64,000 nucleotides of DNA from Cyanidioschyzon merolae. Its lineage: Eukaryota. Location of the stretch: the NCBI GenBank assembly GCA_000091205.1, contig AP006498.2; one strand, written 5' to 3'. Of the stretch, positions 1 through 60,306 are shown in pieces; the first letter of the stretch is position 1; each line of letters opens with the position of its first letter. The notes beneath the pieces were generated by a model. That model made no database searches, was not told the DNA's origin, and saw nothing but the letters and a program-made list of their open reading frames with translations. Position numbers and translations under genes: made by a program.

Positions 1-560
1 CCGGGTAGCAGGGTATTCGGGTGCAGCATGCCGGCACGATCGCCTGCCGCAGGACTCTGCTGCAACATACCTCCTGGGCGGCATGCATGCATGCAATGAC
101 GATTCCTGTACTCGTGCCGCATTCAAACGGAACACTGAACAGCCCGCTCTGTTCCTGACTTTTGCTTTGTCTTGAAATGTATTTGAGATGGACAGCTTGG
201 ACATTTGAATTGCAGCAATATGGCTCTACGGATTCCTGCGTGATTTTTGAATAGTTGGTTGTTTTTTCGAAGTGGTTCTTTCTCGACGCTTTGCCGCCAG
301 AATTCGTTATGTCACCGGAATCAGGATGATTCGCGACACCTTGTCACAAGGGTACGCGAAAGAACTCATATCCGAATAGATTTCGTATGTGCAACCATTC
401 TTGCTTCTCCTTTTGTTCTGTGCGGCATGCACAAAACACGCATGCTTCAAGTTTCCCATCTTTCTATTTCAGGGCAATTCTTCAGTGCAACAGTTCGCTT
501 CGTTGAATCGACGGCGGAACAAAACATGATGTCGTCGTCACCTGGCGCGTTCATATGTTT

Positions 561-1095
561 GATCAGTGAACCAAAAGAATCTCCAAATGACCATGTGGGG
601 TTACATGAATACCCACGCGCAGACGCCTCCCTACGTTCTTTGACGGGCCGCCTGCTATCGGTTTGAGGTTATCGAGGCACATTTCGAGCCTGGGAGGCTG
701 CCCCTCGAAGTTAGATAGGCGCAGCTCCGCGGATCTCGTTTTCAGCACCACAAATCGTCTGATACTGATGGCGTCGATGAAGACTCTGTTCATGAACTCC
801 TTGCGTTTATTGCCTCTGGCTGGACTCACCAGTGCAAATACTGCCAGAACGCGTGCCTTTCTTGCCACTACAGTCTTGTGATCTTCCCGTCGGGCAAAAA
901 TCTTTTCAAGTCGATCTCTCATCGACCTCCTCTTCTTCGTCATTACTAGCTCTTCTTCGCTCGATGGTCGAAGAGAAGATGATTCTCTTCGTTTATTTGC
1001 CCGGAAGCTAGCGATGACGGTGCTCCAGGTTCCCCGACTTCCATGCCCACAACTTTCCCTGGGGTTGTGCATTTCTGAAAATGAACGCACTTCTC
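561..1095 (-). mobile_element. Fanzor/TnpB-like element, miniature internally deleted copy A; keeps the 3' end module, the zinc-finger/RuvC-III coding remnant and the 5' end motif
   Basis: The minus-strand remnant reads ...SCGHGSRGTW...SSEEELVMTKKRRSMRDRLEKIF...ARVLAV...KRKEFMNRVFIDAISIRRFVV, matching the RuvC-III DRD.NAA.NI region of copy C (24658-27010). The 3'-terminal motif gcagacgcctcc / catgtggggttacatg and the 5' motif gaaaatgaacgcac are shared with copies C, D, E and G. Confidence 0.55.
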
Positions 1096-1099
1096 TATG

Positions 1100-2090
1100 C
1101 CCTTAGGTGAGGACCTTCACGGAGTGCGAAGGACTTGCGGAAGAAAGACGACATGTGCTCCGGTGTCACCGTGCGCTGAGCGCTTCAGCGATTCGCCCAG
1201 TGGAACGACCGTTACGTTTTACGATAGAAAACACGCATACGATGCACTTGAGCTATGGATTGTATGGAGGAATGAAAAGATGCTCTGCCCCGATAGAATC
1301 GGCAAGAGCTCGAACGCAAGGGGAATGATGAAATGCCACGTTCTCCAATAGAGGAATGTCGGCAAGTGTCAGGGTAAAGTCTTCAATGATTCGATAAAGT
1401 GGGTGCTGTTGTATGAGGGTTACCCACTCGAGAAACTACGGCCGCAAAATGAATCCATTGTAGCTAGAATAGATGATGTCTTAGTTCGCTTCGAGTTCGA
1501 TCGAACATATAGCAGGCTCCTTCTCTGCGAATACCCATATACGTTCCAACCGTTTTATCCGAAGCAAGCCTTATCGATAGAAGAAAACAAGCCGATGTCC
1601 TTGCGGTACATTACCGATCTCGACGTTCCAGGAACGCTGTCGTCGTGATTTCGATGGAGGATGCGCGTTCGTGAGCCAGGTCTTTTTTGCGGGACTATGT
1701 CCCAGTGTAATGTGCGCCACACGAAGAACCTGTTGAGAAACAGAGACGCCTTTGGTAGCCTCTATCGTCGCTTATGCTTCTCGTATGGTGATTATCGGGT
1801 CGTTTTCTACCATTGACCACGAGCAAGCTTTGAGAGCATCGGGTTGTTGGTGCGGAGCGAATATTCTTGTTTCTTACAGTGTTCCTCAACCATCTGAATA
1901 CTGTGGTATGAATGACATGAATGATGAATGCCGTCCTCCTTGCGCGGTTCAATGAAGAAGATAAATCCTGCAGGCAATTTGTCTTCGATTTATGCAGTAC
2001 CTTGCATCGTGATTTCCACCGCCTAACATACACTACAGCGGGGGTGAAACAAAATTGAGGTGAAACAGTATAACAAGCTCTTGCAGACGG
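1100..2090 (-). mobile_element. Tc1/mariner-like DNA transposon remnant, homologous to 39510-40560
   Basis: DNA aligns block by block with 39510-40560 (for example ccgttacgttttacgatagaaaa, gaaagtcttcaatgattcga, ctgttgagaaacagagacg, gtaccttgcatcgtgatttcca). Locus 39040-40560 encodes a degenerate DDE transposase C-terminus on the minus strand. Confidence 0.45.
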
Positions 2091-2094
2091 TTTC

Positions 2095-2830
2095 TCTGTA
2101 CTTGTCACGTCCAATCATAGATTCGGTACGGAAGACGGATCCCTCTCTCTTTGCAGCGATCTACGAAGCGGCATTCGAAAGGAGCAGCTCGAAACTGCTC
2201 CCGGGATCCGGCCCCAGGGGCTGCAGTCTCTTCTGACTGCATGAGAAACAGTCTCGAACTCGGACTAGAGTCAACGTTGCGATCGCTCCTAGTACAGACA
2301 ACGACAACACTTTGCAAAAATATCCGCATAGATGGATCGAAATTTCTCGACCTGCTCGTCAGTCTGGATTATCCTTTCGGTCTCTGTTTCACCATGAGCA
2401 GCATCGCATTCCGCTGATTTTCTGCGGTACAGAACTGCGTGTTCTCGCTTCTGCAATGGACAGCGTTGTCCTCGAGGACATCGCACATAAAAAACCTTTC
2501 AAGATAGCGTACGGTACTGAGAGGAGATAAGGAAGGCGTATATCATCGGGGCGCCTTCTGCTCCCGTCAGGATCACGTGCCGAGCGATAGGGGAAGTCTT
2601 CATGCGACACGGGGCGGCGCTCGTAGAAGACTCTATATTGAACATATGGGAACACCTGACCACAGTGACGCGTCACCGCTGCCACGGGCGTACCGAGGCT
2701 GCGTCCAAACAAGATGAAAAGTGCGACGCAAGGCTAGATCGCATGTTCAGCTTGTGCATGAAACGCACCGACAACAGCTGGAGGCAGCGTCATCGGGACG
2801 CAAGCTGCTATCAACCTCCTTCCACGGATG
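2095..2830. repeat. Unclassified dispersed repeat (family R5), copy 1; matches 8905-9650
   Basis: DNA and translated similarity to 8905-9650: cttgtcacgtccaatcatagattcggtacgg against cttgtcacgtcacgtaatcgattccgttcg; FLDLLVSLDYPFGLCF...IAFR against VLDLIFALDFPFTTC...IAFR; agatcgcatgttcagcttgtgcatgaaacg against agatcgcatcaaccgcctgtggataaaatg. Confidence 0.5.
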
Positions 2831-3151
2831 ATAATCGCACCTGAGGGAATGGAGACACCGGCGCATGCAGAGCTACAGATAAGACAGGAGGAAAGGAGGA
2901 ATTCGCAGAAAACCCCCATGAAAGCTAGAATTGATAACAGCGGGAACAGGCCCAAACTTGAGTTTGTCAGCACGATATAGCAAAGTCGACTCGTTCCATG
3001 CTATACGAACATGGGTGTAAGAGCAGATCAAATCTGCACTTGCTGTTGCAGATGCTTCGTATGCCACAGTGCAGCGCGCGCAGCGATTTGCTCTCTTTCT
3101 CGCTGCCATACGGGATACGCGCCTTGCTAGATAGCCTAGACGTCGAAGCAG

Positions 3152-4393: not shown

Positions 4394-6810
4394 GGTTTTG
4401 GGAATGAGCATTGACCATTTGATCATTCCATTTGGATGCTGCTGCGGAAATCAAGCAGTTTCGAACGTACTCGAAGCACTTCCTGATTCGTACTCGTACC
4501 GATAAATTTTGGACCGCCGCTACAAGACGATCGACGCCTTGAGCTCGGATCGCGCTGTTGCGTTGCTTTGCGTGGAAGTATGCAAAGCCGCCGGGATGTT
4601 TCCTGGGGCGAAAAGCGTCTTTATTGGGAACGCGCTAGGTATGCCGTGTGTTGGTCGAAGCATTCGTCGAATCTATTCACCTGTACATCGCAGCATCGCG
4701 CTTTGGTTTCATATTACGGTCTTGGTGCACTTCGGGATTTTCTACCGGGTTACTTTGGGCATGGCATTCTCGTTGACGGTCTGTATATGCAGCATATGGC
4801 ACCTGGTTCCAATTGGACTCGAGGCCCATGGCGAAGGCGCACGGACACATTCCGGAGTATGATGAGGCATCGCCGGTGCACTCAACTGCTGGTGACCTTC
4901 AGGAGGATCCACAGGTGCCCTCATTGAGATGAAAACGTTCGTCGACTTGAAGAACATCATTGAGCAGCGGCGTTTTCCGAATGGTTTCAATCTATGCCAA
5001 CAACTGCAATCGAGACGGTCACTGATTTGAAGCGGTGCCATCGAGGCGACAAGAGCCAAAGACCGCTGGTCGACGGTGCGAATCGATATCCGTGTAGATG
5101 CCGGCAGCGTTCAGCGTCGCCCAAGAGCACCTGCAACCAGACTGACCGGTGTATCCGTTCGGCGGGAGAATTTGCCCGCTTCACTACGACCGGTCAGGTC
5201 GCTGGACGGTAACCTGTGTTCGGTCTATGCTCCCACTGTCGCAGCTGGCAGAATGGGTGCATCTGCGCCCCCTCGGATTGCTGCGGGGCGTCGGCGCTGG
5301 CTTCGTCCATCTTTTGCAGGATATCTGCGGGCGCATCAGGGTGCTTCGCACGTGCGCCGCTCTTTACGGGCAGGCCCAGATGTGGCTTCTCCTGCGCGGT
5401 CTTCTGAGCCATCACGCGTCGATGTGGTCCTTTCCAGCTTACAAGACTGCTTCGTGGATGCGTCTGCAACGCGAGGAAATCCCCGGTTCCCGTTCTGCAC
5501 GACACGTCTCACGACGAACTGAACAAATTGTTCACGCTGGTCAGCGCCGGTAAGCGAACGAACGACTTGGCGCAGGCCTGGTGTCACAGTGCGCTCACTC
5601 CAGAGAATATCCGCGAGTCCGGTCGCAATATCCATCGCCATCAAGTAGTTTCGATTCGCATTCATTGGATCATCGAGATCTTCCGATTCTTGATGGTCCA
5701 GATTCATTGGCCTCGCGGAGCTTTCAGCCACCAAGTCCGTCGTTTGCGCTGCCCTAGGGCAAGCGCTTTGCGAATGACCGCGTTTTACAGCCGAATGTAG
5801 TAGCCCTGAAGCAGGCGAGGGTCTGCTTGGGGAAGGCTCGTGGTTCATCTGGGATTGTCTTCTTGCTTCGTAACTGCCTGAAAGAAAGCTGAGGTCTCGC
5901 TTCACGGCTTTTCCGAGACTCTGGCGCGTAGAAATTTCCAGGGGATTGAAACCACGAAAGAAAGTCTCTGTTCCGTGATACTTGCACCGACGGACAGCGT
6001 GCCGCAGCACGCATGTATGGCGACACGGATGCCACCTGGGACACGTGTACGACCTGGGACGCTGATGCGCACGATGCGCCCTCACTTGAACTGTCCGTGA
6101 CATGCTTGCACGCAATCGCCAGCGCAGATATTGTTCTCTTCAAGGGGTATACTAACTGCATCTGGCAAGGTGTTGCGGATACATGATTGCTGCTGCTGGT
6201 GATCTGGAACGAAACCTCACTTGTTGCGCAGAAGCACCGACTTTTCGCTTGCTTTATACCGGGCTTACCCACGAGACCACAGGCCCGATTGATCTTGCTG
6301 CCCTGCGGGGGTATGGTGTCAGTCGCAGGTGTCGAACGGAGACACGACGCTGTTTTGCTGCTTTGACGGGCGTCGGCTCGATGCGTGCATGACGCGACAC
6401 GCAACATTGACGTGTGCGGGCATCTGCGGCCGTATGGGCGCTTCTTCTTGTACGACTTGCCGTCAGCGCCCTGACTAGGCCTCGGGAACGACCACGGTGC
6501 TCGGATGACCCCGACTACGAGACCATCCGGTGCATCTACTTCACCGCATCTGCTAGGTGATAGACGACAACCTTCGCTCTGGCGCCGTTCCAGTCCAAGG
6601 GCGTCTGCGGGCTGCAAGCCAGTGGATGTATTGGGCGCCAGCGGCGGAATGCGCAACTCGAACGCTATGCTGCCTCCACTGTCGAGAAGGAAATGAGGCA
6701 CCACGTCGCTTGTGCATGCTCACGTGAGTACCGTGAACCATCCAAGAGCCAGAAGACGCGCGCTGGACACGCTGCCAGCACGGAATGCATCACATGATAT
6801 TCAGTAAGGT

Positions 6811-8100
6811 GATCTGTGAAACGAAAAATGTTCTACGATCATTTAGGGTACATTGATATCCGGCCGCAGATGCCACCCGGCCTTTTTTGACCGGCCGACT
6901 CCTACCGGGTTCATTTTCCCCTTGTACATTTCGACTCTGAGACGCTTCCCCACGATTTTGGATCTCGTCAGCTCCTCGGGTCTCGCCTTCGGCACCACAC
7001 ATCGTCTGATACTGATGGCGGCGTTGAAGTCCCGGTTCACGAACTCCATGCGTTTATTGCCCCGGGTTTAACTCACGAGTGCGAGGATTCATCGAACACG
7101 TGCCCTCAGTGCGACTACAGTCTCTTCTTCGCCTAGTCGGGGAAGCACTTTTTCTCGCGTACCTACCCTCGTTTTCTTCTTCCTGTTCGTCATTTGCTCT
7201 TCTTCGCTCGATAGTCGTCAAGCAGGGCATTTTTCGTTTCGCTTTTGTCGAACCCGGCGATGGCGGGCCTCCAGGATACCCCGGCTACCATATCCATAAC
7301 TTTTCCGTAGATTTTTTAAAAGTAAGCACACTTCGAACCTGTCAGCTATACACCGCGAAGAAGCACTTGATGACACGCACCTGGCAGAGGAACGCAATAC
7401 GGGCGAAGGACGATGATCACGGCTGTGCAACTGTGCTTGCTTGGTGCACTTCTGTGTGCACTGGGAGCGTTTGCGAGACCAGAGGACAAGCGTTGAACCC
7501 GTCGATTCTACTCCGGCAAAACAACCAGCACATGTGTTCCGAATCATCGGATTCCGTTCGTGGCTACCGAGTTATTCTGCGCGATGTTCGGGCGGCTGGA
7601 GCGACTAGACGACATCGCCTTTTGCTGGGTGTCTGCTTCCAGCATGGAGCATCCCGGGGCTCAACGTACCGTTCAGCGAATAGATGCGCGCGCCGCAGAG
7701 CTTCCATATGCTACTGGTGACTCGGCAGTTGCGTGACGATGCTTTAATGCTTCAAAGATCCGTATCTTGCATGCCGACTCGCATCTATTGTCGCTGAATG
7801 GTCCAGCGAAGAGGACGTAGCGAACAGGTCCCTCAGCATCGACAAATTCGACTTCGCACAGTGCGGAGTATTTCTCAGTGCTGAACTTTGTCCCTGGTGC
7901 TGCTGTTATCGACTGGACGACCATAATTTCCTCCGCCCGAGGGCGACGCAGCATTAGAAATCCTTTTTCCATGCCCAGACCAGAACAAATAGCGAAATCG
8001 ACACTTGTCAGCGTTTCAGGCGCATGAACCTGCATGGGTCTTACTCGCTTTCAAAGCGGTTTCATTGAAATCTAGAACGCCATTGCTGGAGTAATGCCAG
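6811..8100 (-). mobile_element. Fanzor/TnpB-like element, partial copy B (C-terminal about 1.3 kb plus 3' end)
   Basis: Minus-strand ORFs 7673..8035, 7218..7547 and 6843..7049 give VDFAICSGLGMEKGFLML...IMVVQSITAAPG...YSALCEVEF...FSDNRCESACK...MEFVNRDFNAAISIRRCVV, collinear with copy C motifs (helix + RuvC-II, a C..C knuckle, RuvC-III). The 3' end motif catttagggtacattgatatcc...gatctgtgaa sits at 6811-6850. Confidence 0.5.
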
Positions 8101-8900
8101 CCGAATTATTTGAAGAAAAAAAGAAACCCCGCGCAAGCAAAGCTTTCTCTTCGCTAGAACTGGTCGGGAAAGAGACGTGACACGCGGTGCGAAACCAGGA
8201 AACACTTTTTGATGATGTAATCATTGGTGCAGTTGTCCCGTCTCCTCAAATGATGGTGCGACCTCCGACCTTCGAAAGCTCAGAAGCGCCGGACAGTCTC
8301 TAATTCATTGCCCGATTCAGTTCACCTATCGATCAGGAGTGTTCCACTGCTCCAAAGCATTCGGCCCGAACGGCACTCGACGGATGCAGCCGTTGCTTAA
8401 GAACTTGAGTGCGCCGAACTGGACGATACGTTGCTCCACCCGCGTCACTTGAAAAGGCACACTGAACTGCTCGGTCACTTCGCGCTCCACGATCTTTCCC
8501 GAACTTTTTTTTATTGATGCACAACCTCGATGTTCGAAGTGCGGCAATATGGGGCTGAGGATCCGTACGTAGCCTTAGCATTCTCGGTCGTCTTTTTGGA
8601 GTGGCTTCTTCGGCTCTACGCCGCTCAATTTCGTTCTGTCATCGATTCCAAGGTGTTTCGGGATGCAGTCGACCAAAAGGTTCATGACATGACCGACGCC
8701 ATCATCGAATCCATAGGTACAAGCCTCCATTCTTCTCCTCTTGCATACGTTGATCATGCGCAAATCACGCATTCTTCACGTTTTCAACCCGTGTGTCTCA
8801 AGGCAAGTCGTGAATGCAGCGATTCGTGCCTCTGGGTTGATGACGAGAAATACTCGACGTCATTGCTTGACAACTTCATCTCAAGCTCATGAAGAAACTT
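8100..8900 (-). mobile_element. Diverged Tc1/mariner-like transposase remnant
   Basis: Minus ORF 8326..8547 (KIVEREVTEQFSVPF...) resembles minus ORF 40104..40316 (SIVENEPLITLWKAKATILAATDVS, the first-Asp region of a Tc1-like DDE transposase). There is weak DNA similarity to 1900-2090. Confidence 0.3.
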
Positions 8901-8904
8901 CACT

Positions 8905-9650
8905 GGACTTGTCACGTCACGTAATCGATTCCGTTCGAAAGACAACTACGCATCTCTTTGTGTCCATTGACCGCATAACACGCGAAGCCGGACTGATACT
9001 TCTCGCTGTATATGTCCCGAGACGCTCCCGACTCTTCTGTCTGTATGGAAAGGGGTCTTGGACTCGGATTCTCGTCATTGCAGCGATCGCGTCTATTAGG
9101 ACGTGTGTAACCAGGTTGCACGAAGAGATCGTAAACGGATCAGGAGTTCTCGACTTGATTTTCGCACTGGATTTTCCATTTACTACTTGTTCTATCAAGG
9201 ACACTATCGCATTCCGTAAATTCTCTATTGAATGAAATCGCGTCCGCTTGCAACTGCAGCCGACAGCGTACTCGCCCCCGGGGCCATCCAGAACATTGCC
9301 GTGATCGTAGAACACGACATCGGAAGCAGAAACGGAAAAGCGCAGCGACGCAGGCCTGCTCCTCCTGTCCATAGCAACCATCGAGCGATGGAGGATGCGT
9401 TCACGCGCCACAGGGCGGCACTGGGCGATACCGGTGTCGTCGATGTATCCGAAAGCCTGACCATAGCAGACCGCCGCCGTTTCGAATGCAACACCGTGGC
9501 TGTACACAAATACGATAGATGTGGCAAGCGATTCGTAGATCGCATCAACCGCCTGTGGATAAAATGCATCGTCAAGTGTCGAAAGCGACGACACTGACTC
9601 CTGAGTGCTGTCATCAACATCCCTGGACTACCGACAGCGGCCATTGATAG
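8905..9650. repeat. Unclassified dispersed repeat (family R5), copy 2
   Basis: See 2095-2830. It sits in the same position relative to the Fanzor-like and mariner-like remnants as at the window start. Confidence 0.5.
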
Positions 9651-9930
9651 AAAGTCGAGACCAGCGCATTTTACGCCAGACCCGAAAGAGCGAGACATCG
9701 AGAGAAAGGAAGCAGTCGGAGAAGTAGCCAACCAAGGCTGGTGTCACGAACAGTGACCACAACTAGAACTTGATCGTCTTCGCCCAAGTAATGTCAGTAG
9801 ATCGCTTCCATTCGGCACCGATACGGCTGTACCCAGGTGCAGTGCCGTCGCGTGCGTAACGGCACCTGCGGCATCGCACGAGCGCTGAGGCGTCCAATCA
9901 ACGTCCAGCTGAGTACCAAATGCACGGCTA

Positions 9931-21057: not shown

Positions 21058-21453
21058 TATTATACCAGCAATTACATATGCTGAAAGCGGCTTTGTACCA
21101 ACAGGCGAAGTTGCTTGACGAGCGTGCCCCTTTGTATGCATATTTCTCGAAAGGATAGCGCTGATGCCGCGCCGCCCGTTAGCTGGTTTCAAGACGCGTC
21201 GTGTATGGCGTACCCGACCCGAGCGAGGGCGTATCGAGCATCCAGCCACAATGCCATGAAACCGGAACGACTATAACGCTCATGTCTCTCGTTCATGTGA
21301 ACGTTTGCGCCTTCCATGCCGTTTCTACAACCATAAATCCCACGTTAGAATGAAAGGGAAGCGCTCCATTTACATCAATCGGGTATGCTCACGAAACCTT
21401 TGCCGGATTCAATGGGAGCAGGCCTCTGAAAACTGGCGTTCAGGCTGACTTTT

Positions 21454-22000
21454 GGCTCGGCTTCCGCTGACATGGACAAAGGCGTGTGCGCGCTTCTCCT
21501 CTGCCGGCATCGTTTTTCTCTCTGGTACCTCTGCCTGGGAAGATGTCGATCTCGCGTGCCGCTCGAGCTTCGTTGTCGGCAACTGAAGAATGCTCATGAC
21601 AGCGTTCAAGTTCCGGTTACGCAGCTTCCGGCGCTTGCAGATGCATATCATGCACACACAAAAGCTGCTCCCTACGCTCCGCTTGTCGTTTTGCACCCGC
21701 TTTGCATGCGGCCTCGGTGCACATTTCGCGGCAGCGACAGCTTGCTGTGGTCGGATCTTCGCGTGTGGCCACCAGAGCACCTCCTCAACGCCTTTCTCGA
21801 TTTTTCAGCACCAGGTGCCGTATCCTAAGACCACGGGCTTCCTCGGGGACGATCACTTTGGTTCGTACGCTTTCTGCGGCACGCGCAAGTGCACGCTCTT
21901 CGATACGATAGAGGGTGTGTAGAACGCGATATTGTCCATGATGAAACGAGGACTCGAAGGAAAAGCAAGGCTCGAGCAAAACTCGGGAAACTTCGACCCG
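21454..22000. repeat. 550-bp dispersed/direct repeat, copy 1; 99.5% identical to 29893-30443
   Basis: Direct DNA comparison shows identity across about 548 bp with 3 mismatches (ctacgctccgc/ctacgcttcgc, tatcctaag/tatcccaag, cttcgacccg/cttcgatccg). Identical ORFs (MLWWPHAKIRPQQAVAAAKC...) appear in the track at both loci. Confidence 0.85.
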
Positions 22001-22756
22001 TGTAGTCCCAGTTCATCGCAACCGCGCTGCACGAACCGCGAAACTCGACGCTGTCCACCCAAGCCCATAATCAATAGCGAGAACGAGTTGCACCAAATCA
22101 GTTTCGCACGCACACACTATTCTCGCAGCAGCTACGCTGCGTGTAGCGATAGGTGCAGCACCTGCTCTGTGATGCAGGTACTTGCACGGAGACCTGCGGC
22201 AGCGTGCACTAGAGCGCCCTTTCCAATCGCGTTACCCATTGCCCATGACGCTTTACCCATTGCGTGATATGCTTTACAGGTTGCGTTCAACGTCTAACGC
22301 GAGGTGCGGCCTCGTGCCTGCTTCCGCGCTGGGTGCTGCGCGCGCGCGCGCGCGTTTCGGCGCTGCAGCGGCATGGCAGGCCGCGGCGCGTCAACACGTT
22401 GCGCGACTCGAAGCTGCGTTCTGCTCAGGGCGCTCACGCTGTGTACTCCTGCAAGCGGATGCCGTGTGAGATGAAATCTAGCACTACTGGATTTTGCTTC
22501 ACTTGTGCGGGTAATGGACGTTGGGAAGGCACGTTCTACGGTAGCCGTGAGCCTGTCTCCAAAGTGTGGCACTGTGGGAGCGGTGCTGGGTGTCCACGCC
22601 ACTCGATGCGCCTTCCAGGGGCGCAAGCGTCACGCCGCGCACTCCGTTAAGCAGATGATCGTGGCCAGTGGCTGGTCATGAAGAAACCGTCGTCGACCAA
22701 GGTAACGGTGCCGTCCACGTGCCGGAGGCAGCAGCACTCGGCAGCGCGAGGAGCGA

Positions 22757-24657: not shown

Positions 24658-24900
24658 CCATCAGTAGACGTGGAGCGAAAACTTTTCGCGACCATGTAGG
24701 GTACATGGATACCGACGTGCAGACGCCTCCCGGCGTTTTTGGATAGGCCCCCAGTTATCGATTTCAGTTTCTACGTGTACACTTCAACATCTAGAGGCTG
24801 CCCTACGAATTTAGATCGCGTCAGCTCCTCGGGTCTGTTCTCCAGGATCGCAAATCTCCTGATATGGATTGCGGCGTTGAAGTCTCGGTTCACGAACTCC
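24658..24900 (-). ncRNA. Candidate omegaRNA-like structured 3' module of the Fanzor-like element (prediction from sequence only)
   Basis: The region that overlaps the RuvC-III coding end plus about 115 nt downstream is the best conserved part across all copies. It contains two adjacent hairpins whose sequences differ between copies but keep pairing. Confidence 0.3.
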
Positions 24901-26896
24901 ATGCGTTTCTTGCTGCTTCATGAACTCATCAATGCAAGGAGTCCTCGGACTCGTGCCCTGCGTTCCATTTCCTGTTCTGTCAGCTCTCCGCGGTTTTCGA
25001 TTTCCTCAACACGCCGCTGTATGTTCTCCATCTCGACCTTCTGAAGTGTACACCCCAGTTCGTGGTGCACACACGCGATGTTCGGAACTCACCTATCGGT
25101 TTTGTGATATAACGCTGTGCACACTCCTTGTACGCTCATGTCGTTGGAGCGGGTATGCACCCTTTTATGGACGCCCAGCGCCCTGCTCCGTTGCCAACTA
25201 CGAGCCTGTGACTCTCGACCTCCTTCAAGGCGCTCAACTCATGGAAAATATCGGTGAATGCCCGCTGCTTCCCACAGTATAGATTCATACGCCGACGAGC
25301 CCACCTGGGCTTAATATATTCTTTCCACAGCGCATCCCAATGAGCAGCTTGAGTTTTCATGAATTCCCGAAAAGCTTCAAGGTTCGCTCCACGGCTCGTA
25401 ACCTGGCTGATCGCTTCCAGGTGCTCATTCATTCCTGCATTCCATGCCTCAATGTTCTTCCTTGCATTCATTATTCCCGACTCTCGGTAGTATCTCGCTC
25501 TCGCGAACCGCAAAAGACGCATATCTTTCTGACGTAAGTTACCGTCAATGCCATCTTCCGTACGCTTGGGTACTGCGATGGATACGATTTTCGTCTTTCC
25601 AGGGTCCGCGCTGACGACAGTGTCGTTCTCCTGCACCTCCTGCGTGGCAGGATCCGCCTCTTTGTTTTCTGCATCCTTCGTCACGGGCGAAGCGGAGGAC
25701 GGAACAAGACGATCCGCCTTCAAGCGCCGATAGTACACACACGTTGATACTTCATCGCTTTCGATGATCCCTGTGAATACTTTTTTCTTGCGCATTTTGA
25801 GACGATTGAAGTCGAAGATATTCTTCCAGTATGTCTCCCGGTTTTCACCCATGAACTCCTTCCTGTTTACATCGACCTCTGGACTGATCTCCTTTATGAT
25901 GCCGTAAAAGACTCTGTAGTCGATCGTCACAAAATGCGACTAGGCGTCGCGTGCCGGAACGACATCGAAGCACTCCTCCAGAAGCGCAGCCTTCGGTTTC
26001 AACGACTCGTCATTTTTTCCCACACCCAACTCCATCTCCGCCTTGCGTTCGAATTCTCGATTCAGGAATACGAAATAATGCAGGATGAGGGGATGACATC
26101 TTTTTTCATCTTGTCTCATATCTGATAGCTTATCTGCTGGATTGACCAGCCCAAAAACCGCACGATGCTCTTGAGTAGCCGCACGGATCCGATAAGCTTC
26201 ATTCGTGCTCTCTTTCGACGCCCTCTTCTCGGTGGAATCGATCTCCTGTTCATGATGGCAATCTTTCGTGATGCCATTGAGGATGGCCCGTATCGATTCG
26301 CGAGAAGGATCCGGGCAGAGTGCAAACATGGAGCGCATCATGAGGCGTTTCAGGTTCAAGGTCGAATGGTTCTTCGGGTTCTTGATGTACGTCATCGCCC
26401 CGTGGCCGTAAATATCCGCGCCACCGCCGTATCTAGTGCAGTTGAAGCGGTATTCGACGTAGTTTTCTTGGACGGCGTGCACTCGCTCATTTCTTCTCGA
26501 CGCCTCCCCTGTGCCATGCATCGGGTGACGAGTAAAGGTCTTGTTCGAAAATTCTTCCCGAACCTCGACTCTTCCCATGTGCGTCACGTCGCGACGCATC
26601 TCCTTTTCGAAAGCATCAGCCCTGACGAGTGCGTTATAAGAATACTCAAGGAGTACGACTCGACACGGTTTCTGATAGCCTCTCGCAAATTTCACCTGTA
26701 GGGATGCTAAATTTCGCGTAGAAGACAGGCTTTCACATTTATCTCGTCGTACTGTCGTCTTTCGTGGAGCTTTTGACGTCGGGCCTCCTGCTTCTACTTC
26801 TTGGTCAGCTCCTGTTCCTCTAAACTCGGTTTTGTTTTTCGTTTTCTTTTTCTCGGTAGCCCGCGACTCCTGCCCTCCAGGATCCTCAACTTGCAT
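24771..26896 (-). pseudogene. Fanzor/TnpB-like RuvC nuclease gene, disrupted by two in-frame stops (TAG 25940-25942, TGA 25136-25138) and at least one frameshift near 24960
   Basis: Motifs in TnpB order: a lysine-rich N-terminus (EKKKTKNKTEF), RuvC-I VVSADPGKTKIVSIAV, a helix KQRAFTDIFHELSALKEVESHRLVVGNGAG, the zinc-finger lead-in AYKECAQRYITKPIGEFRTSRVCTTNWG, and RuvC-III MEFVNRDFNAAIHIRR (24861-24902). The two ORFs in the track are in the same frame, separated only by TAG-Ser-His-Phe. Confidence 0.55.
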
Positions 26897-27189
26897 TCCT
26901 GTAGCTTTACTTATTTATTTTTGAAAACGAACGCATTTCGAATACGTCGGCTGTAAACTAAGATACAGCACTTGAATGCACTAATTTGAGGGTTGGAACA
27001 GAATTCGATTGAAAGACTCTACGATGACGTCAACGCAAACACAACCTATAAGTTAGATCAACCAGCTGATGATTAGGATCGTGTTTCGCTTCGACGGCGA
27101 GTTGCGCGTCATATCTCAATGGTGGCAGATATGGAGGTGCGCGTATCTGCCGCGCTGTAGAAAAAGAGGAACAGGAACGAACCATTAAC

Positions 27190-27720
27190 GAGCTACGGGA
27201 TCACGATCTCTATCCGCCTTCACGGTAAGCGTTGAAAGAGGAAAAGCGTTCCGCATTTTCGAAAGTCTGCTACCTGGGCGTAAAGTCCCGCGAGCCGGAC
27301 GATTCTGCAAGATTTGGGCTTGATTCGCCTCCCAGTGGCGGGTACGATAGTGAGATCTGAGTCGCTCGTCCGAACGCAGCTCATTCTGAGGCTAGAAGTG
27401 GGTAGAATGCGCCTGGGCGTCGCCCTGGTTGCGGTTGTATCCCATCCCATGGGTTCGCACTGCCGTAGGCAGCACGTCTGCTTACACAGATTACAGGACC
27501 CGAAAATGGTTACATACTCGGACTCCGTATGAGGTGAAGCGTGCGTCGAGCCGATGCCTTCAGGGCTGTGGCAAAGCCGTTCTGTCTCCGTGTTGCATCC
27601 GCTCCAGCGGTTTAGGCGCTATTGCAGACGCTTGCGGCAGATGTTCAGCACAAGATCGACCGTATAAGGCGCCCAGTATATCCGAGAAGCAGTATGGGTT
27701 ATGGAACTTGGAGGAAACGC
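27190..27720 (-). mobile_element. Tc1/mariner-like transposon fragment (3' part), homologous to 39040-39560
   Basis: DNA alignment: ggaaaagcgttccgcattttcgaaag...gcgtcgccctggttgcggttg against ggaaaagttttccgtattttcgaagg...gcgtcgccctggtcgcgattg, and cgagccgatgccttcagggctgtggcaaagcc...atggaacttggagg against cgagccgacgccatctgtggtacggcaaagcc...atggaacttgcagg. Confidence 0.45.
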
Positions 27721-27772
27721 GTGAAATGATGGATGCTTCCGCGCGCGTTGATACCAAGCGCCCAGTCCGGGC

Positions 27773-28756
27773 ATGCTGGCATATGGACACGTTTTGTCGA
27801 CTTTGAAGTCGGACCATACCTGTATAAAATGGACATCATGGATCTCAAGGGCGGCGTCGCCGTTTACTGCGACCGCCTCTTTGCGATCCGTCACCGTTTC
27901 GTTTCCATCTCCGTGCAGAGCAGCACTGTTCGCGAACATGGCAGGGATTGGATCAGGGTTCGTTCCGACGTATACGTTACGTAGCGCTCGTGGCAGTTTC
28001 GGCGAAACAAAGTCTTTATCGCAACCGGCGAGAACCCGGGGACACCAGCGGTTAACTTTCGTGTCGAACGCGCGCCGGCGTTGCCAACTGGTCGCGAGTG
28101 CAGCCGAGGAGCGCCCGGAACGATCTCAAACGCAGAGCGAAATAGACTTTGCGAAACTTCAATTTTCGGAAGGTAATGAGTTGAGTGGTATGGTGTTCAA
28201 ACCGGATGCGGAATTAGCAAAGGCTGGGCCCGATGAGTCCCGTGCGCGACTCGCATACTCGAATGCATGCGAGGAGGCGATTAACAGCCAGATTAACGTG
28301 GAGTTCACCGCCTTTTACGTATACTATGCTTTGCACGCATACTTTGATCGGGATACGGTCGCGCTCCCAGGTTTTGCGGACTATTTCCGAAAGCAAGCGG
28401 AGGAGGAACGCGACCACGCTGTGAAACTCATGCACTATCAAAACAAACGCGGTGGGCGCGTTCACCTGAAGCCGATCGCGGTTCCAGCATTGCACTTCCA
28501 TAACGAGGAGAACTCGGATGCGATTTATGCAATGGAACTTGCGTTGCAACTTGAGAAATACGTGCAAATGAAGCTCATGGAAGTTTGGAAAGTGGCTGAT
28601 CGCGAGCGCGATGCGAATATGACGGATTTTATCGAGGATTTCCTCGACATGCAAGTCGAATCGATCAAAGAGATTTCAGATTATGTTGCTCAGTTGAAAC
28701 GTGTTGGAACTGGTCATGGCGTGTATCACTTTGATCGAGTGCTCGCTGACAAGTGA
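27773..28756 (+). CDS. Ferritin (plant/algal plastid-type, with an N-terminal presequence)
   Basis: Ferritin-like di-iron core [64 protein letters not shown]...[19 protein letters not shown]. About 130 aa come before the core, consistent with a transit peptide. An alternative start is the ATG at 27938 (MAGIGSGF). Confidence 0.85.
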
Positions 28757-29892
28757 GGTGTCTGTATGATCGGTACTGAGGGGTACGGTTTCAACGAATT
28801 AAGCATCCGCATGGCGAGAGCTTGCGTTCTTCAGTAACTTGCTGAATTCGCAACACGTGATCCGCATGCAATCTGAGGACATGTTGTTACCGGGTGTGAC
28901 GGTGCTGCTCGTGCTGCTCCCGGTCGCGCTTTTCTTCGGTCGAAACATATCAGCATTGGCGACTGAAACTCGGAGCAGCAGCCGGGCGCAGTAACATGAA
29001 GCGTTGTTCGGCATAACATGCGTGCGAATTCGATTAGAATAGCGAGAAAAATGCTTAAAAAATGAAGGAGTCATTAACGGAGAAGGCCAGGAATGGACAT
29101 TCCCTCGACGCAGACTTTTCAGCGGCAGTTCGCCGTGGTCATGGCGACGTTTGCAAAACCGAACATCTTTGGGTATGGCCGGACGCATTTTCGAGGTTTT
29201 CGTTCTATTGCTCCCGTAGTATCCCGTTGCCCTCGTTCACTGTTTGAGAATGTTTCTATGCGATAGCAGCGCTGGTCGCCAAATAGTTCTCCGATAGCCT
29301 GCACTGATTCATCAAACGCTAAAGTTGCCTGCTGCTCAACAACGAACGCAGATCGAGAGCTGCAAGCGACACCCAGCAAAGTACCGCAAGACCGTGCAGG
29401 TTCTGGGGAGAAGCGGTGGCGGCAGCGGCGCTCCGAGCGTGTGAAGCGTACTCGGCATTCGCAGGGGCTATGGATCTCGCTTCGGTCCCTTCAGATGAGC
29501 TCTGCCTTGGAGGCCTGAAGCACGTCGAAACGCCTACACAAGGAACGAGGTCTCTTTCCTTGTCACCGGGTGCTTTGGCGCATTGGGCAGGCAACAACCT
29601 GGTTAGACTCACCATCATGAAAAAACATCCGTCGTCGCAGATAGTGTCCTCGATGGACGCAGTATCCGTGGGATCTCGGGAGAGACTAGCCTCTGTTCCG
29701 GACTGGAACACGGATCTGGTGCTGATGGCGAAACGTCGCGACATCCGGAGAGGTGCGTTGCCCTCATGGCCAGTTGCGAACAGGAATTATGTATCTGGGG
29801 AACGCTGCGTGGTCCCGGCGATCATCCAAGATACCCATGTCAGACTAGAATGGAACTGACTTTATCAGCGAGCTTGGGAGTGCACGATATAG

Positions 29893-30443
29893 TTCGGCTC
29901 GGCTTCCGCTGACATGGACAAAGGCGTGTGCGCGCTTCTCCTCTGCCGGCATCGTTTTTCTCTCTGGTACCTCTGCCTGGGAAGATGTCGATCTCGCGTG
30001 CCGCTCGAGCTTCGTTGTCGGCAACTGAAGAATGCTCATGACAGCGTTCAAGTTCCGGTTACGCAGCTTCCGGCGCTTGCAGATGCATATCATGCACACA
30101 CAAAAGCTGCTCCCTACGCTTCGCTTGTCGTTTTGCACCCGCTTTGCATGCGGCCTCGGTGCACATTTCGCGGCAGCGACAGCTTGCTGTGGTCGGATCT
30201 TCGCGTGTGGCCACCAGAGCACCTCCTCAACGCCTTTCTCGATTTTTCAGCACCAGGTGCCGTATCCCAAGACCACGGGCTTCCTCGGGGACGATCACTT
30301 TGGTTCGTACGCTTTCTGCGGCACGCGCAAGTGCACGCTCTTCGATACGATAGAGGGTGTGTAGAACGCGATATTGTCCATGATGAAACGAGGACTCGAA
30401 GGAAAAGCAAGGCTCGAGCAAAACTCGGGAAACTTCGATCCGT
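29893..30443. repeat. 550-bp dispersed/direct repeat, copy 2
   Basis: See 21454-22000. Confidence 0.85.
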
Positions 30444-31159
30444 GTACGCTCCTATTGTGCAAAAACGACGACGCACGCTCCACTGAAAGCGAATGCCTCG
30501 ATGGCTCAAGTCCGAGCCCGAGGCTCGATTTGGTGCAAAGAGAAGGGACGGCCGCCCCTGTGAGCATATCCCGTGAGAGCCATCATGCCGCTGCAGCTGC
30601 AGCTGATGCTGTTGTGGAATGATATTTCGTCTACATCCACAAATACACCAGGGGGAATTGGCTTTTGGAATGAAATCGATCGTTTGACGCGACGAGTTCA
30701 GAGAACATTGGGCATGAACATGTGATCACGCCTTCAAGGGACGACGTCGCGTTGCTCGCCTCTTCGATCCAGTGGCGCATACTGCTACGCCCACGAGTTG
30801 CCTCGAACGAGAAAGCCTGGCGACTTGAACAAACCGCAATTGTGGCACGCTACACACGAAAGACACGGAGAAGCGTGGATACTTGCACATGGGCATTGGG
30901 TGATGATAGTGGGTTAGTTTATGAACCGTTTGTCGAGTGCGTCGCGAGTCCCATTGATTCCATTGATAACGAACTCCAACAGCAGACCGTTGCACGAGTG
31001 ATTCCGAAAAGACGACCGCGAATCCGAAACCTACCTATGAATCTGTCAGCCGTTTTTGATTGACATCAATTTTGAGGCTGTTTTAATTACAAAAAAATTC
31101 AGATTGAAATTGCAAAGAAGATACTGAGCGAGCTGTTTCGGTTTCTGTTTTATTTGAAT

Positions 31160-31790
31160 AGCGAGTCCATAAAACGATAAACATCTCACGACAATGGAAG
31201 GTAAGTATCAACAGCCTCGCGCAGGCGCCTCCCAACCTTTCTTTTACCGTCCCTCTACCATCCGGTTCAGTTTATCCCAGCACGCATCGACTCTGAGGGA
31301 CTGCTCCACAAAGTCGTATCGTCTCAGCTCATCTGGTCTCGTCTTCAGCACCACACATCCCCTGGTATTGATGACGGCATTGAAGCCCCGGCCCATGAAC
31401 GCCATGCGTTCATTGCCTTCGGTGGAACTCACTATTGCAAGGATTCCTCGGCCTCGTGCCCTCAGTGCGATTAGAGTCCCGTCATCGTCTCGTCATGCGA
31501 ACACCTTTTCTCGGATATCTCCCCTCCTTTCTCTTCTTCTTCATCATCATCACTTGCTCTTCTTCGCTCGAAAGTCTGCGACAATAGGATTTTTATCGTT
31601 CGGTTTGCCGCGCACCCCGCGGTTAGAGGCCCTCAGGATCCTCGACTTCCATATCCATACCTTTCCCTAACATTTTCTATTTCTTCAAATGAACGCATTT
31701 CGAATACACCTGCTATAAACCGCGAAAAAGTATATGGCGATACGCACCTGGAGATGGAATACAATGCAAGTGAGCGACTGTAGGATCATT
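31160..31790 (-). mobile_element. Fanzor/TnpB-like element, miniature copy D
   Basis: The 5' end ggtttatagcaggtgtattcgaaatgcgttcatttgaagaaatagaaaa is followed by a retained start ATGGATATGGAAGTCGAGGATCCTGAG (MDMEVEDPEG, compare copy C MQVEDPGG). This is fused to the C-terminal remnant MAFMGRGFNAVINTRGCVV (RuvC-III) and the 3' end motif ...gcgcaggcgcctccc. Confidence 0.55.
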
Positions 31791-35856: not shown

Positions 35857-35977
35857 GAGCGTGCACTGCTCGCACTGGAACGCTGCCCAAAAGCAACCGG
35901 TGTCACAGAGGTACGCAGCGACTAGTGCCGGGCAGCAATGACAGCAAAGGCGCACGCGGCTGTTTCGTCTAGACTTT

Positions 35978-36575
35978 CACCTGAATTGTGTTCCATACCT
36001 GGGTTCGTTTCATCGTATGCTTTTTTTGCGGTTTAGAGCAGGTGTGTTCGAAGTGCGTTTACTTGAAGAAATATAAAACCCATGACATAGGTATGGACTT
36101 GCACGTCAGGGGTCCTGAAGGGCGATCATCGCGGGGGTTCGACCAGAAAACGAAACAATCCTCTCTTTGTCAACCATCGAGCGAAGCAGAGCAAGTGGCA
36201 AAGATGATGGTGATGATGATGATGATGAAGAGCGGAAATCCGTGAGACAAGGTGTCTACCCGACGGGACTGGAACGAGACTGTAGTGGCACGGAGGGAAC
36301 GAGTTCTAGCAATCCTTGCAAGGATGACTCCAAACAACGTCAATGCACGCATGAAGTTCGTGAAGTGATACTCCAACGCCGCTACCAATACGAGACGATG
36401 TCTTGTGTAGTGAAGACGAATTCCGCCGAGCTAACGCAATCCAACTTTGTGGGGCAGCTTCTCAGGCTCGAAGTGTGCCTCGATAAACTGAAAACGATAG
36501 CAGTTGACCGGTCATGAAAGGCTGCAGGCGTCTGCGCATGGGTAGTCATTCACTTTAGTATGTTGCTCAGAGAAG
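35978..36575 (+). mobile_element. Fanzor/TnpB-like element, miniature copy E
   Basis: The 5' end cacctgaattgtgttccatacctggg...gcggtttagagcaggtgtgttcgaagtgcgtttacttgaagaaatataaaac is followed by a retained start (ATGGACTTGCACGTCAGGGGTCCTGAAGGG), a degraded RuvC-III region (CTHEVREV...), and the 3' end ggctgcaggcgtctgcgcatgggtag. Confidence 0.55.
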
Positions 36576-37520
36576 GACATTTGTGTTGCCATGACTTGGC
36601 GCTGGCGATGCGTCAAAGCTGATGATTATGGCGCTAAAGAATCCCGCCAGACGCCGTGCGTCAACAACTGGACCCGTTAGGCGGTAGGTCACCTGCAGGC
36701 GTGTTTTCCAGGGTCCAAGCATCTGCACTCGCACCAGCATGTCAGTGGGTGCAGGCACGCGCCACCCGATCAACGCCTCATAGAGCGGGTGCGCCGGCGG
36801 TAATATCATCTCTAGGAATCGACTGGAAACGGTACAGATGCGTACCGCTCGCAGGGTTACTTCCACGGCGGAACGTCTCCTGAAACGGGTAAGCACGCGG
36901 GTAGAGGGATAGGTGTTCCTTCTCACCAGCGGGTGCCAAGCAAAGGCCTGCGTCGCGCAACTGCGGTGCAATTCACAAACGTTGGCGGAGGGGAAATTCG
37001 CTCCCCAATATTCATCCTATCCGCAAAGTTTCTACAACGGGTCGCAGCACAAAGGCAGGCCTACATACGAAGACTCTCGGATCCCAGGATCACCACGAGA
37101 CGCGACCGCGCTGCAGGTGAACCACACCTCCAGCCGACATCCTCCGTGGCATGACACAGCAGCGCAGACTCCGTGCGACGTCCGCACCGGCAAGGCGGGC
37201 GCTCTGTCAGACGCTCACGGCAGACTCGGTGTGCACAACGGAACGTTCGCATTTACCAGTATCTCCGAGGGGCAGCATGGATTGTGGACGTTGATGTTAG
37301 GCGGCAAAATGGACGCATCCCCGATCACTGGTGTTCCATGACGTAATCAGAGATGCCTGGTCAGCATGAACGTTCTTTCGATCAAAAAAAAATCGCCCCA
37401 GAAACAGCTGCCCTATGGACGCAAACGAGGAAAACCCGCACACCAATCCATATCGCCAGCTTACAATCGCTAACACACATCACGCAAGGTGCTCCATCGG
37501 GCAATGTTGTGCGAATCCGA

Positions 37521-38951: not shown

Positions 38952-39039
38952 GCGCTGGCAATCCGTGCGCAGGAGATTCGGGTTCGCAGCACCGTAATCT
39001 GAAACGAATCACTAGTTGGCAATTCGATAACAATTGATT

Positions 39040-40560
39040 TCCCTCTCTAAGCCCAGCGTTGATCACGGGGAAAAGTTTTCCGTATTTTCGAAGGTTTATC
39101 TTCTGGACGGAGGGAACCGCGAACCGGACGAGTCTGACGGGCTCGTGCTTCATGCTCCGCCCACTGGCGGGTGCAGAGGCGCGACCCGCGCAGCTCGTCC
39201 GCGACGCAGTCTCTTCTGAGACTAGGAGAGGTTACGCTGTATCTGGGCGTCGCCCTGGTCGCGATTGACTCGTAGACTATCGCTTTGCACTGTCGATGGA
39301 AAAACATCTGTCTGTCCAGCTTGCAATCTCCCAGAATGATGATGAATCCCGACCCTGTGTCGTGTGCACCACGCCTCGAGCCGACGCCATCTGTGGTACG
39401 GCAAAGCCCTTCTGCCCCCGTGCTAAGGCTGCATCCGCGCTACCGGCGCTACGGCGGGTGCTCAGGGCCGGCACTTGGCGCACGAAAGAACGCACAAAAC
39501 GACCAGTATATACGAGGAGAGGGAATGGAACTTGCAGGTACGGGGCGGCAGCCTGATGAATGCTTTCCAGAATACCAATGTTTATCTAGGAATCTGGGAT
39601 TGATAGTCAGTGTAAACGTTTTGTCAAACCGAAAAAAAACTGTCCCAGTAGAATGATCATTGCGTTTCACGATAGAAAATACTCCTTCGATGGGCCTGCA
39701 AAACGGGGTGTGCGGAGCAATGCATAGCAGCTCGACCCCGATAGCATCGGCAAAAGCTCGAACGCAACGGGAATAGAGAAATACCTCGTTGTCCAATAGA
39801 AGGACGTCGCCAGAAGTCAGGGGAAAGTCTTCAATCATTCGACAAAGTTGTTGGTGCTGTTGGATGAGGCATATCTACGAAGGAAACTGAGCCCGCCGAA
39901 TGAATCCACTGCAGCTACAACAGCTGTTGATGTCATCGTTCTCTTCGAGTTCGATCGTAAATACAACGGGCGCCCTGCTCCTCTAATACTCACTTACGCT
40001 CTGCCTATATCGTACGAAGCAAGTCTTATCGACTGAAAAAATGAACCGACGTTCCTGGGCTTTGTCTGGGGAGCGACGCTCCGGGAACACTGTCGTTACG
40101 ACTTTAGTGGAAGATGACCGTGCATGAAACCGCAATTATTTGTCCGCAACTGTATTCCAGTGTTTCCAGAATAACACGAACAGGTTGTTGAGAAACAGAG
40201 ACGTCTGTAGCGGCTAGTATCGTGGCTTTCGCTTTCCATAAAGTGATCAACGGTTCGTTCTCTACGATGGACCGCAAGCTGTCTTTACGATGATCGGTTT
40301 CTGGCGCGGAGCGCATCGTATTCTCTTTGTTTCAGTGCTCCTAAACCATCTGAGTACTGTGGTACGTCTAACCTGAAGGGGGAATGAAGCCCTCGATGCC
40401 TTGTTGCGTAAAGAATACGTATCCTACAAGCAATTCGTCTACCATCTATATACGGTACCTTGCATCGTTATTTCCATCGCCTGCTGGACACCGCGGCGAG
40501 GGCGAAACACACATGGGTTGCACCGCTCGTACGGTACGAATGGCAGCTTCTGGAGCCGCT
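39040..40560 (-). mobile_element. Tc1/mariner-like DNA transposon, about 1.5 kb, with a degenerate DDE transposase on the minus strand
   Basis: Minus ORF 39449..39838 ends ...GDVLLLDNEVFLYSRCVRAFADAIGVELLCIAPHTPFCRPIEGVFSIVKRN, the third-catalytic-residue region matching D-N-A--H......-L-LPPYSPDLNPIE of Tc1/mariner/IS630 transposases. Minus ORF 40104..40316 (WKAKATILAATDVS) resembles the first-Asp W..V.FSDES region. The element is contiguous with fragment homologues at 27190-27720 and 1100-2090. Confidence 0.55.
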
Positions 40561-43834: not shown

Positions 43835-44420
43835 CCTCAATTGTGGTCCATCTCCTGGGGCGTGTCGCTGTACGCTTTTTCGCGGCTCATAGCAGACGCG
43901 TTCGAAGTATACTGATTTTTAAAAAAATCTGAGGAAAAGTTATGGATAAGGTAGTCGAAGGATGCTGGGGGCCCGTCATCGACGAGTTCGATAAAAACGA
44001 AAAATCTTTTCCTCGTCGAGAATGGAGCGAAGAAGAGCAAGTGACGAAGAAGAAGATGACGATGAGAGATAGACGAGAAAAGGTTTTTGCCCAATGGGTC
44101 GATGACGAGACTGCAGTGACATAGAGCGCGCGAGTTCTAGCAATCCTTGTACTGGTCAGTTCCACCCGCGGCAAGACACGCATGGAGTTCGTGAACCGAG
44201 ACTTTGACGCCGTTACTCATATACGGATATGAGCGGTGCAGGAGAAGAGGCCCGAGAAGCTGACGAGAGCCAACTTCGTGGGGGAACCTCTCAAAGTTGA
44301 ATTGTATGAGGAGAAGTTGAAGCCAGTAGTAGCTGGCCGGTCAAAAAAGTCTGGCAGGCGTCTGCAGCTAGGTAGGTAACAAGTTACCTTACTATCGCGA
44401 AATGCTTTCGCTCCGCTGAG
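43835..44420 (+). mobile_element. Fanzor/TnpB-like element, miniature copy G
   Basis: The 5' end ...gtacgctttttcgcggctcatagcagacgcgttcgaagtatactg is followed by a retained start (MDKVVEG) fused to ...SEEEQVTKKKMTMRDRREKVFAQW...RMEFVNRDFDAVTHIRI. The 3' end carries hairpins ggtaacaagttacc (44375-44388) and gcgaaatgctttcgc (44397-44411). Confidence 0.55.
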
Positions 44421-59936: not shown

Positions 59937-60303
59937 CAAAAAAGCGTGGTACTTGCTTTCAAACAAAATCGTTCAGTGCCAGAACTTGGGGCAGAAGCTT
60001 TGGTCTATGGATAGATCGCTAGATCGGCTCGCTTCCGAAAAGACACTTTCTCACCCGGTTTGGTGCTAGACCTCTTGCCAGGTAGACGCGGTACGCTTGG
60101 AGGACGCGATAACGTCCCACAAGTGCAGCGCTTGCGCATGTTCTAGCGCGCACACCATGCAGACGGGCGGTCGTATAACCGCCCAGAATCGAACATACCG
60201 GACATCAGTAACGTTGCCGCGGTGCAAGCATCCCCACTGACCGGCTGGCCTGCAGCCGGCGATGATGCGCCAATTGAACGTGATCGCGCGTGTGCGGTTT
60301 ACC

Positions 60304-60306
60304 TGC

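Follow-up and report, generated by a model that had tools for sequence, protein, structure and literature searches.

Three loci in a 64,000-nucleotide stretch of Cyanidioschyzon merolae DNA (contig AP006498.2; the whole stretch is hereafter called the window) had been read in an initial annotation as a recurring succession of a Fanzor-like sequence, a Tc1/mariner-like remnant and a repeat named R5. These loci are probably relics of one old transposon lineage of C. merolae, in which a DD34E transposase gene and a Fanzor1 gene of the CMe-1 family lay in the same orientation within one unit, here called family 1. Gene content, gene order and the junctions between the parts were observed directly; so were the many different flanks in which copies lie and the decayed state of all window copies. 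The window copies are inactive, because all of them are pseudogenes and are 60-80% identical to each other.

Two open reading frames (ORFs) of the window are exact matches to the C. merolae 10D proteins BAM81839.1 and BAM81849.1, and near-identical proteins and contigs are contained in JGI and Logan assemblies. The repeat map of the window was made by self-BLAST, which resolved four repeat types: Fanzor-related sequences, a DDE transposase remnant ('M5'), a repeat named 'M3', and R5. Related loci were obtained from one metagenome scan, which yielded 80 loci with 232 relatives and altogether about 1 Mb of sequence; this set collapses to 46 distinct full-length Fanzor loci, 37 of which have at least 900 bp of upstream sequence.

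At the first locus, positions 560-2069 (minus strand) form one copy of a 1.5-kb repeat in which a DDE transposase remnant is followed by a Fanzor1 stub. The remnant, of the IS630/Tc1 type and frameshifted, spans about 1098-2069 (minus), with the 5' end of the element at about 2062-2069, and is 70% identical to 39644-40520. The stub makes up the 3' third of the element (560-1093, minus) and consists of a short upstream leader, an N-terminal coding stub fused to a RuvC-III C-terminal remnant, and a 3' tail (type B) that ends in ...TTCACTG; its RuvC-III aspartate is mutated (NRVF). At 1098-1184 (minus) lies the coding sequence for the C-terminus of the transposase (...SSFFRKSFALREGPHL), which was matched by a hidden Markov model (HMM) of the C-termini of 50 relatives with E=1.9e-6. 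The block at 1100-1170 which the initial annotation had compared with sequences at 39540 and 27700 is thus real and corresponds to the transposase C-terminus, but its match to those two positions amounts to a short, weak similarity.

The 1.5-kb element lies inside an R5 copy. R5 sequence flanks it on both sides, and the two halves are contiguous in the uninterrupted copies at 8437-9830 and 29831-31166, which shows that 560-2069 is an insertion. The left half (107-559, plus) carries the 5' terminal inverted repeat (TIR) and a remnant coding for a Tc1-like helix-turn-helix (HTH), and the right half (2070-3019, plus) carries a DDE D1/D2 remnant, a TnpB/Fanzor zinc-ribbon and RuvC-III remnant, and the 3' TIR. 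The plus-strand order of Fanzor stub, DDE remnant and R5 annotated for this locus was borne out by self-BLAST, with R5 also present at the left. An apparent 10-bp duplication of R5 sequence at the insertion was considered as well, and was unsupported when 16 copies were compared with mismatched flank pairs.

The same junction was found repeatedly in the related contigs. All DDE copies have a single 3' boundary in common, and in 13 of the 14 distinct copies the conserved stretch, which encodes the transposase C-terminus, is followed at the same junction by Fanzor-derived sequence in the same orientation. The copies with a DDE remnant and a stub match window 560-1195 in their Fanzor stub and 3' end, while their genomic flanks are unrelated. 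A homologous stub of about 600 bp follows the DDE sequence in the window copy (W_A) and in L017, L029/30, L031/81, L034, L060a, L060b, L063, L066, L085 and L091; these junctions are base-for-base homologous at at least 11 loci with unrelated flanks. In contig L046 the DDE sequence is followed by a full-length, decayed Fanzor gene. L091 retains more of the Fanzor C-terminus, and its internal deletion is therefore independent. The sole DDE copy without following Fanzor sequence is that at window 39003-40520, where the DDE remnant (39644-40520, minus; ORF 39449-39838 carries its DN...PIE part) is joined in frame to a different repeat, TE-N2_CMe (39003-39648, minus).

The consensus of 11 DDE copies matched PF13358 (DDE_3) with E=3e-21 (76 bits against a cutoff of 28.6), and its match to HTH_Tnp_Tc3_2 was weak and under the cutoff. 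By hand count, 34 residues lie between LLLDN and PIE both in the consensus and in ORF 39449-39838, the DD34E spacing. The 114 relatives of the transposase are typically 295-300 aa long and carry PF13358. With the Mariner transposase of PUl-1 the consensus shares 31% identity (E=9e-14). From its domain match and catalytic spacing, the mariner-like unit is identified as an IS630/Tc1-type DDE transposase.

For the reconstructed Fanzor of the full window copy, 44 relatives were found in JGI metagenomes, and an exhaustive profile search gave 2054 relatives. A profile of 27 diverse relatives matched SpuFz1 (8GKH, E=8e-14) and GtFz1 (9CER, E=7e-8); only this broadened profile worked, and narrower ones matched no PDB sequence. 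Pfam gave no match for the raw Fanzor and stub ORFs of the window, nor for close relatives. Translations and alignments show the RuvC triad motifs GADPG[NK]T, DEFRT[ST] and NRDFNAAINI for both the family consensus and the window copy. The C4 zinc finger between RuvC-II and RuvC-III was not found in the CMe-1 lineage, which reads ...TSYTHHELGCTL...EKCQR...RGLLALVS without CxxC pairs; more distant relatives read RGLLWC. CMe-1 was filed as a Fanzor1 despite the missing CxxC pairs (PMC3627910). On these profile and motif matches, the Fanzor-like unit is assigned to Fanzor1. An AlphaFold2 model from the 44-sequence alignment was unusable (pLDDT 46.5) and was not used. The guide RNAs of TnpB and Fanzor proteins are normally encoded at the 3' end of the nuclease gene or in its tail region. 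For the retained 3' tail, RNAalifold returned no consensus structure of a guide (omega) RNA, and two hairpins seen by eye showed covariation no greater than that of shuffles.

The only full-length Fanzor1 gene of the window lies at 24670-27038 (minus). It is of the CMe-1 type, has a type-B 3' tail and is decayed, with two in-frame stops, at least one frameshift and one further stop; its motifs read DPGKT, EFRTS and NRDFNAAIHI. A linker of 115 bp (27039-27153, minus), whose sequence other copies and the CMe-1A consensus conserve, separates the gene from a copy of M3 (27154-27798, minus), here 645 bp long and a repeat of about 650 bp in self-BLAST. According to Bao & Jurka 2013 (PMC3627910), CMe-1A of C. 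merolae is 3169 bp long, is present in about 150 copies and encodes a 734-aa Fanzor1 protein; it has no TIRs, its target-site duplication (TSD) was undetermined and its class unknown, and no transposase was named for it. Its 5' 635 bp are 95% identical to TE-N2_CMe (about 70 copies; PMC3627910). The CMe-1A consensus starts with CGATGACAAAACGTTTACATTGACC, exactly the start of M3, and its 5' 980 bp match the window at 26825-27738 (75%), 60360-61006 (81%) and 39001-39626 (78%). M3 is therefore TE-N2_CMe (hereafter TE-N2), and 24670-27798 is one CMe-1-type copy with TE-N2 as its 5' arm. For this locus, the annotated succession of a full Fanzor copy and a second repeat was correct, with a linker of 115 bp between them, but the supposed 3' part of a mariner element is the published TE-N2_CMe. 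The published 3' tail of CMe-1A was not found in the window copy beyond about 60 bp. The first codons of TE-N2 (FFDDKTFTLT) were also considered as a transposase C-terminus (FFDKSF), which would derive TE-N2 from the 3' part of a Tc1-like element; MAFFT aligns the two, but the HMM of 50 C-termini gave no match.

Among the 37 full-length Fanzor loci with sufficient upstream sequence, TE-N2 was found directly upstream of the gene, in the same orientation and at a fixed distance, in 15 (13 by script, L081 and L053 by inspection), and DDE sequence was upstream in one. In six loci (L008, L030, L033, L037, L051 and L068) a TE-N2 fragment of about 200 bp (positions ~90-275 of the repeat) was found upstream in inverted orientation, some 300-450 bp from where Fanzor starts. 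Seven copies lacking TE-N2 (L021, L027, L056, L063, L066, L071 and L074) have another conserved 5' module upstream of the linker (GTGCCAATGCGGGGTGTCGGACACGTGTCCTTCATCGATCGG...), and the 5' arms of this family are therefore interchangeable. Three further TE-N2 sequences or parts of it lie in the window apart from any full-length Fanzor gene: the copy joined to the DDE remnant, a fragment at 37055-37401 (minus) that is convergent with the Fanzor mini-element at 35965-36549, and a solo copy at 60353-61030 (plus) that is 81% identical to the 5' arm of CMe-1A. A (CCAGCCAG)n-type microsatellite at about 60320-60352 directly precedes the solo copy.

At the second locus, the initial annotation placed the full succession of Fanzor-like sequence, mariner-like remnant and R5. 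A Fanzor mini-element (6810-7430, minus), composed of the 5' terminal region, a Fanzor stub and a type-B tail and devoid of DDE sequence, is indeed present, as is an uninterrupted R5 copy (8437-9830, plus). The mariner-like remnant is not: 7431-8436 gave no match to the window or to 84 related loci with blastn (word size 7) or tblastx. This unique sequence contains a 120-aa ORF (7673-8035, minus) that is conserved over its full length in sister-strain assemblies and for which a Pfam search gave no domain. Further mini-elements are located at 31172-31786 (minus), 35965-36549 (plus) and 43824-44418 (plus). At about 600 bp each, the mini-elements, like the stub at 560-1093, bring together some 200 bp from the 5' end of the full copy and some 300 bp from its 3' end. 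Taking little more than the transposase ORF out of the 1.5-kb element gives a mini-element. Homology also links the DDE element and the Fanzor-only mini-elements over their first ~40 bp (alignment score 46; mean for shuffled sequences, 13). In the consensus of the 1.5-kb family the Fanzor stub is open over 164 codons, in which a basic N-terminal stretch runs into the RuvC-III region, while individual copies are broken.

R5 had been suggested to be the missing 5' region of the composite. A consensus built from 20 copies showed instead that it is a separate family with TIRs of its own, about 27 bp long and with 27 of 29 terminal positions matching (5' end ACACCCGTGTCAGATTAAAATGGAAC; reverse complement of the 3' end ACACCCATGTCAGAATAAAATGGAAC). 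On either side of R5, T...A flanks are still seen in about 7 of the 20 copies, as would fit a TA duplication. The N-terminal part of the R5 product has a Tc1-like HTH (with weak Pfam HTH matches) and the DDE motifs FVAIDETAF and FIMDNIAFHKS, and matches the DDE transposase of family 1 with E=5e-7. The C-terminal part (...VVDIWEHLTTVKCHRCEG...CMKC...RNRDLNAAINI) matches PF07282 (Cas12f1-like TNB) above the cutoff, with E=3e-8. It thus resembles the RuvC and zinc-ribbon region of TnpB/Cas12f-type nucleases in having CxxC...CxxC followed by RNRDLNAAINI, but differs from them in that just the last ~150 residues are kept, and these follow a Tc1-like HTH/DDE N-terminal remnant to which they are fused. 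R5 is, to judge by sequence, another chimera of transposase and nuclease enclosed by one TIR pair, independent of family 1. The same internal deletion is present in all of the approximately 35 R5 copies of the related contigs; no longer parent was found among the fetched loci, and a protein search gave only short fragments.

Two other R5 sequences occur in the window, an uninterrupted copy at 29831-31166 (minus), whose 5' TIR end is about 5 bp from the mini-element at 31172-31786, and a partial copy of the 3' part at 21451-22032 (minus). Over 554 bp of the R5 3' part, 21451-22004 and 29893-30446 are 99.3% identical, whereas other R5 copies are about 60% alike, a pattern more suggestive of duplication or gene conversion, local and recent, than of transposition. 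The claim that order and orientation are the same at three loci does not hold for R5, which encloses the element at the first locus, lies 1 kb away at the second, and is inverted and abuts a mini-element at 31166/31172. In the related loci, likewise, neither the distance nor the orientation of R5 relative to Fanzor genes is constant. The proposed non-random association stands for DDE with Fanzor and for TE-N2 with Fanzor, both far beyond chance in the related contigs.

If the loci do derive from one lineage, the ancestral unit would have combined a compact IS630/Tc1-type DD34E gene (about 300 aa) with a Fanzor1 gene, probably in the order 5' terminal ~95 bp, transposase, short spacer, Fanzor1 and 3' tail. 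The DDE enzyme, if it worked like those of Tc1/mariner elements, would have moved such units by cut-and-paste, and Fanzor1 may have acted as an RNA-guided nuclease helping the element to persist, as suggested by TnpB and the characterised Fanzors. Internal deletions, the direction of which we infer, could account for the present forms: the 1.5-kb element with transposase and Fanzor stub (560-2069), the mini-elements of about 600 bp with the stub alone and no transposase (6810-7430 and others), and Fanzor-only elements, many with a TE-N2 arm in front (24670-27798). A family 1 element would then have inserted into an R5 copy at the first locus. Deletion derivation from a composite, one of the two origins considered in the initial annotation, is supported by the 13 of 14 junctions, by L046 and L091, and by the homologous 5' ~40 bp, in copies that are all decayed. 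The other, repeated nesting, is also true in places, namely at the first locus inside R5 and where a mini-element abuts R5 at 31166/31172.

Several observations weigh against a common origin as one two-gene transposon. No copy was found in which the DDE gene and the Fanzor gene are both intact, and none with the two intact between one pair of TIRs. The 5' end of family 1 and the reverse complement of its 3' end match no better than shuffles, and no long TSD was found in family 1. When the outer ends were examined as the initial annotation had proposed, TA was seen to precede the 5' end in most family 1 copies, but the 3' flank starts with A and a TA was not clearly demonstrated there. In full-length Fanzor copies, sequence is conserved upstream of the point at which the DDE elements and mini-elements start (linker and TE-N2, or the alternative 5' module), and this start point is therefore internal in those copies. 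The 3' tails are also divided. Two different tails follow GGGAGGCGTCTGCACGTC, as seen when window 24670-24720 is compared with the 3' end of the CMe-1A consensus: most full copies, and L046 as well, have the CMe-1A tail, and the type-B tail was seen in all mini-elements and 1.5-kb elements and in only one full-length copy, that of the window. Since L046 has a CMe-1A-type tail while the family of DDE elements with a stub has type B, one has to assume that lineages recombined or that events were repeated. In addition, the related loci are metagenome contigs of related strains or species and not the 10D genome, and the majority were fetched through the presence of a Fanzor gene; the DDE copies of L085 and L091 were fetched through the transposase. 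A possible TIR of the window's subfamily was seen in the outer ~23 bp of TE-N2 (27775-27798), which align with the reverse complement of the type-B tail (24670-24710) with 19 matches and 2 gaps; at p=0.006, uncorrected among 10 comparisons, this is suggestive only of a weak TIR in this one subfamily.

The lack of a TIR pair in family 1 would also fit a different origin, in which a Tc1-like element and a Fanzor element were joined once by nesting or recombination and the chimera was then amplified, so that the association was a historical accident and never a functional two-gene transposon. Nesting does occur in the window, as seen for 560-2069 within R5 and for the mini-element that adjoins R5 at 31166/31172, and the DDE remnant at 39003-40520 shows that the transposase can be joined to TE-N2 and not to Fanzor. 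Moreover, the DDE element differs from the mini-elements by essentially the transposase ORF alone. Such an accident is nevertheless unlikely. No DDE copy of family 1 stands alone with its own ends, and inspection of the DDE consensus by eye revealed no TIRs belonging to the transposase segment itself. Gene order and orientation are as in published composites of Mariner and Fanzor1 such as PUl-1, and the same layout occurs inside clear TIRs in R5, the second family. It is far less probable still that the repeats merely co-occur because relics pile up in the few intergenic gaps of a gene-dense genome. The window is gene-dense, the distance and orientation of R5 relative to Fanzor vary in related loci, and at the second locus 1 kb of unique sequence separates the two repeats. 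However, chance is contradicted for DDE with Fanzor by the base-for-base homologous junctions at at least 11 loci with unrelated flanks, and for TE-N2 with Fanzor by the fixed distance in 15 of 37 loci and by the published CMe-1A consensus, which has TE-N2 as its 5' arm. For the adjacency of R5 and Fanzor at the second locus, co-occurrence by chance is a fair description.

A single transposon lineage carrying both genes, the preferred explanation, has published parallels. Associations of Mariner/Tc1 elements with Fanzor have been reported (PMC10530073), Fanzor1 has been described in such elements with or without a transposase, and PUl-1 of Pythium ultimum and PGv-1 are Mariner elements that encode a Mariner transposase and Fanzor1 (Bao & Jurka 2013, PMC3627910). 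Family 1 resembles PUl-1 in gene order, the transposase preceding a Fanzor1 of the same orientation, and in size, the composite as reconstructed being about 3.6 kb against 3620 bp for PUl-1. It differs in that PUl-1 has 24-bp TIRs and TA TSDs, neither of which family 1 shows convincingly, and in that no intact family 1 copy was found. The window also resembles CMe-1A and TE-N2_CMe: they come from the same organism, the pseudo-protein of the window Fanzor is 61% identical to CMe-1, and the 3169 bp of CMe-1A with its 635-bp arm in common with TE-N2_CMe correspond to the 3.2-kb unit of the window. The window differs from CMe-1A in having CMe-1-derived sequence to which a DDE_3 transposase remnant is physically linked, and in that its full copy, its mini-elements and its 1.5-kb family have the other 3' tail.

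The contig L046 is 99% identical to the window over 57458-62718. It was considered as a direct continuation of the window, but this was ruled out, as it belongs to a 99%-identical strain and collinearity ends at window position 62718. From 62719 onward the two sequences diverge, and the window contains ORFs with reverse-transcriptase-like motifs (FIDFQKAFDTVPH) at 62060-64000; this part may be a retroelement insertion that varies between strains.

A wider scheme may be considered, in which CMe-1A, and possibly TE-N2_CMe, descend from a Fanzor1-carrying Tc1/mariner transposon, R5 arose independently in like manner, and both lineages were whittled down to the 5' end, the last ~150 codons and the 3' tail of the nuclease gene. 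That the guide-encoding region was kept repeatedly may mean that the short elements survived as guide-only riders with the nuclease supplied in trans. This scheme as a whole is speculative and rather doubtful.

The occurrence of Fanzor1 in Mariner/Tc1 transposons and the Fanzor family of C. merolae were already known, the greater part of the structure belongs to families already published, and no new mechanism is revealed here. New are the DDE partner of CMe-1, the derivatives of 1.5 kb and of mini-element size, and the recognition of R5 as another family. CMe-1, a family left without a class, thereby gains a concrete candidate for its transposase partner, and the breaking up of one lineage into several short repeat families can be seen more clearly. 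R5 adds a second TIR-bounded chimera of transposase and nuclease in a genome in which no MITEs (miniature transposable elements with inverted repeats) were found, according to a paper describing a MITE database. These results could help curators to classify the repeats of C. merolae, whose small and well-assembled genome makes the long-term decay of a partnership between a transposase and an RNA-guided nuclease traceable.

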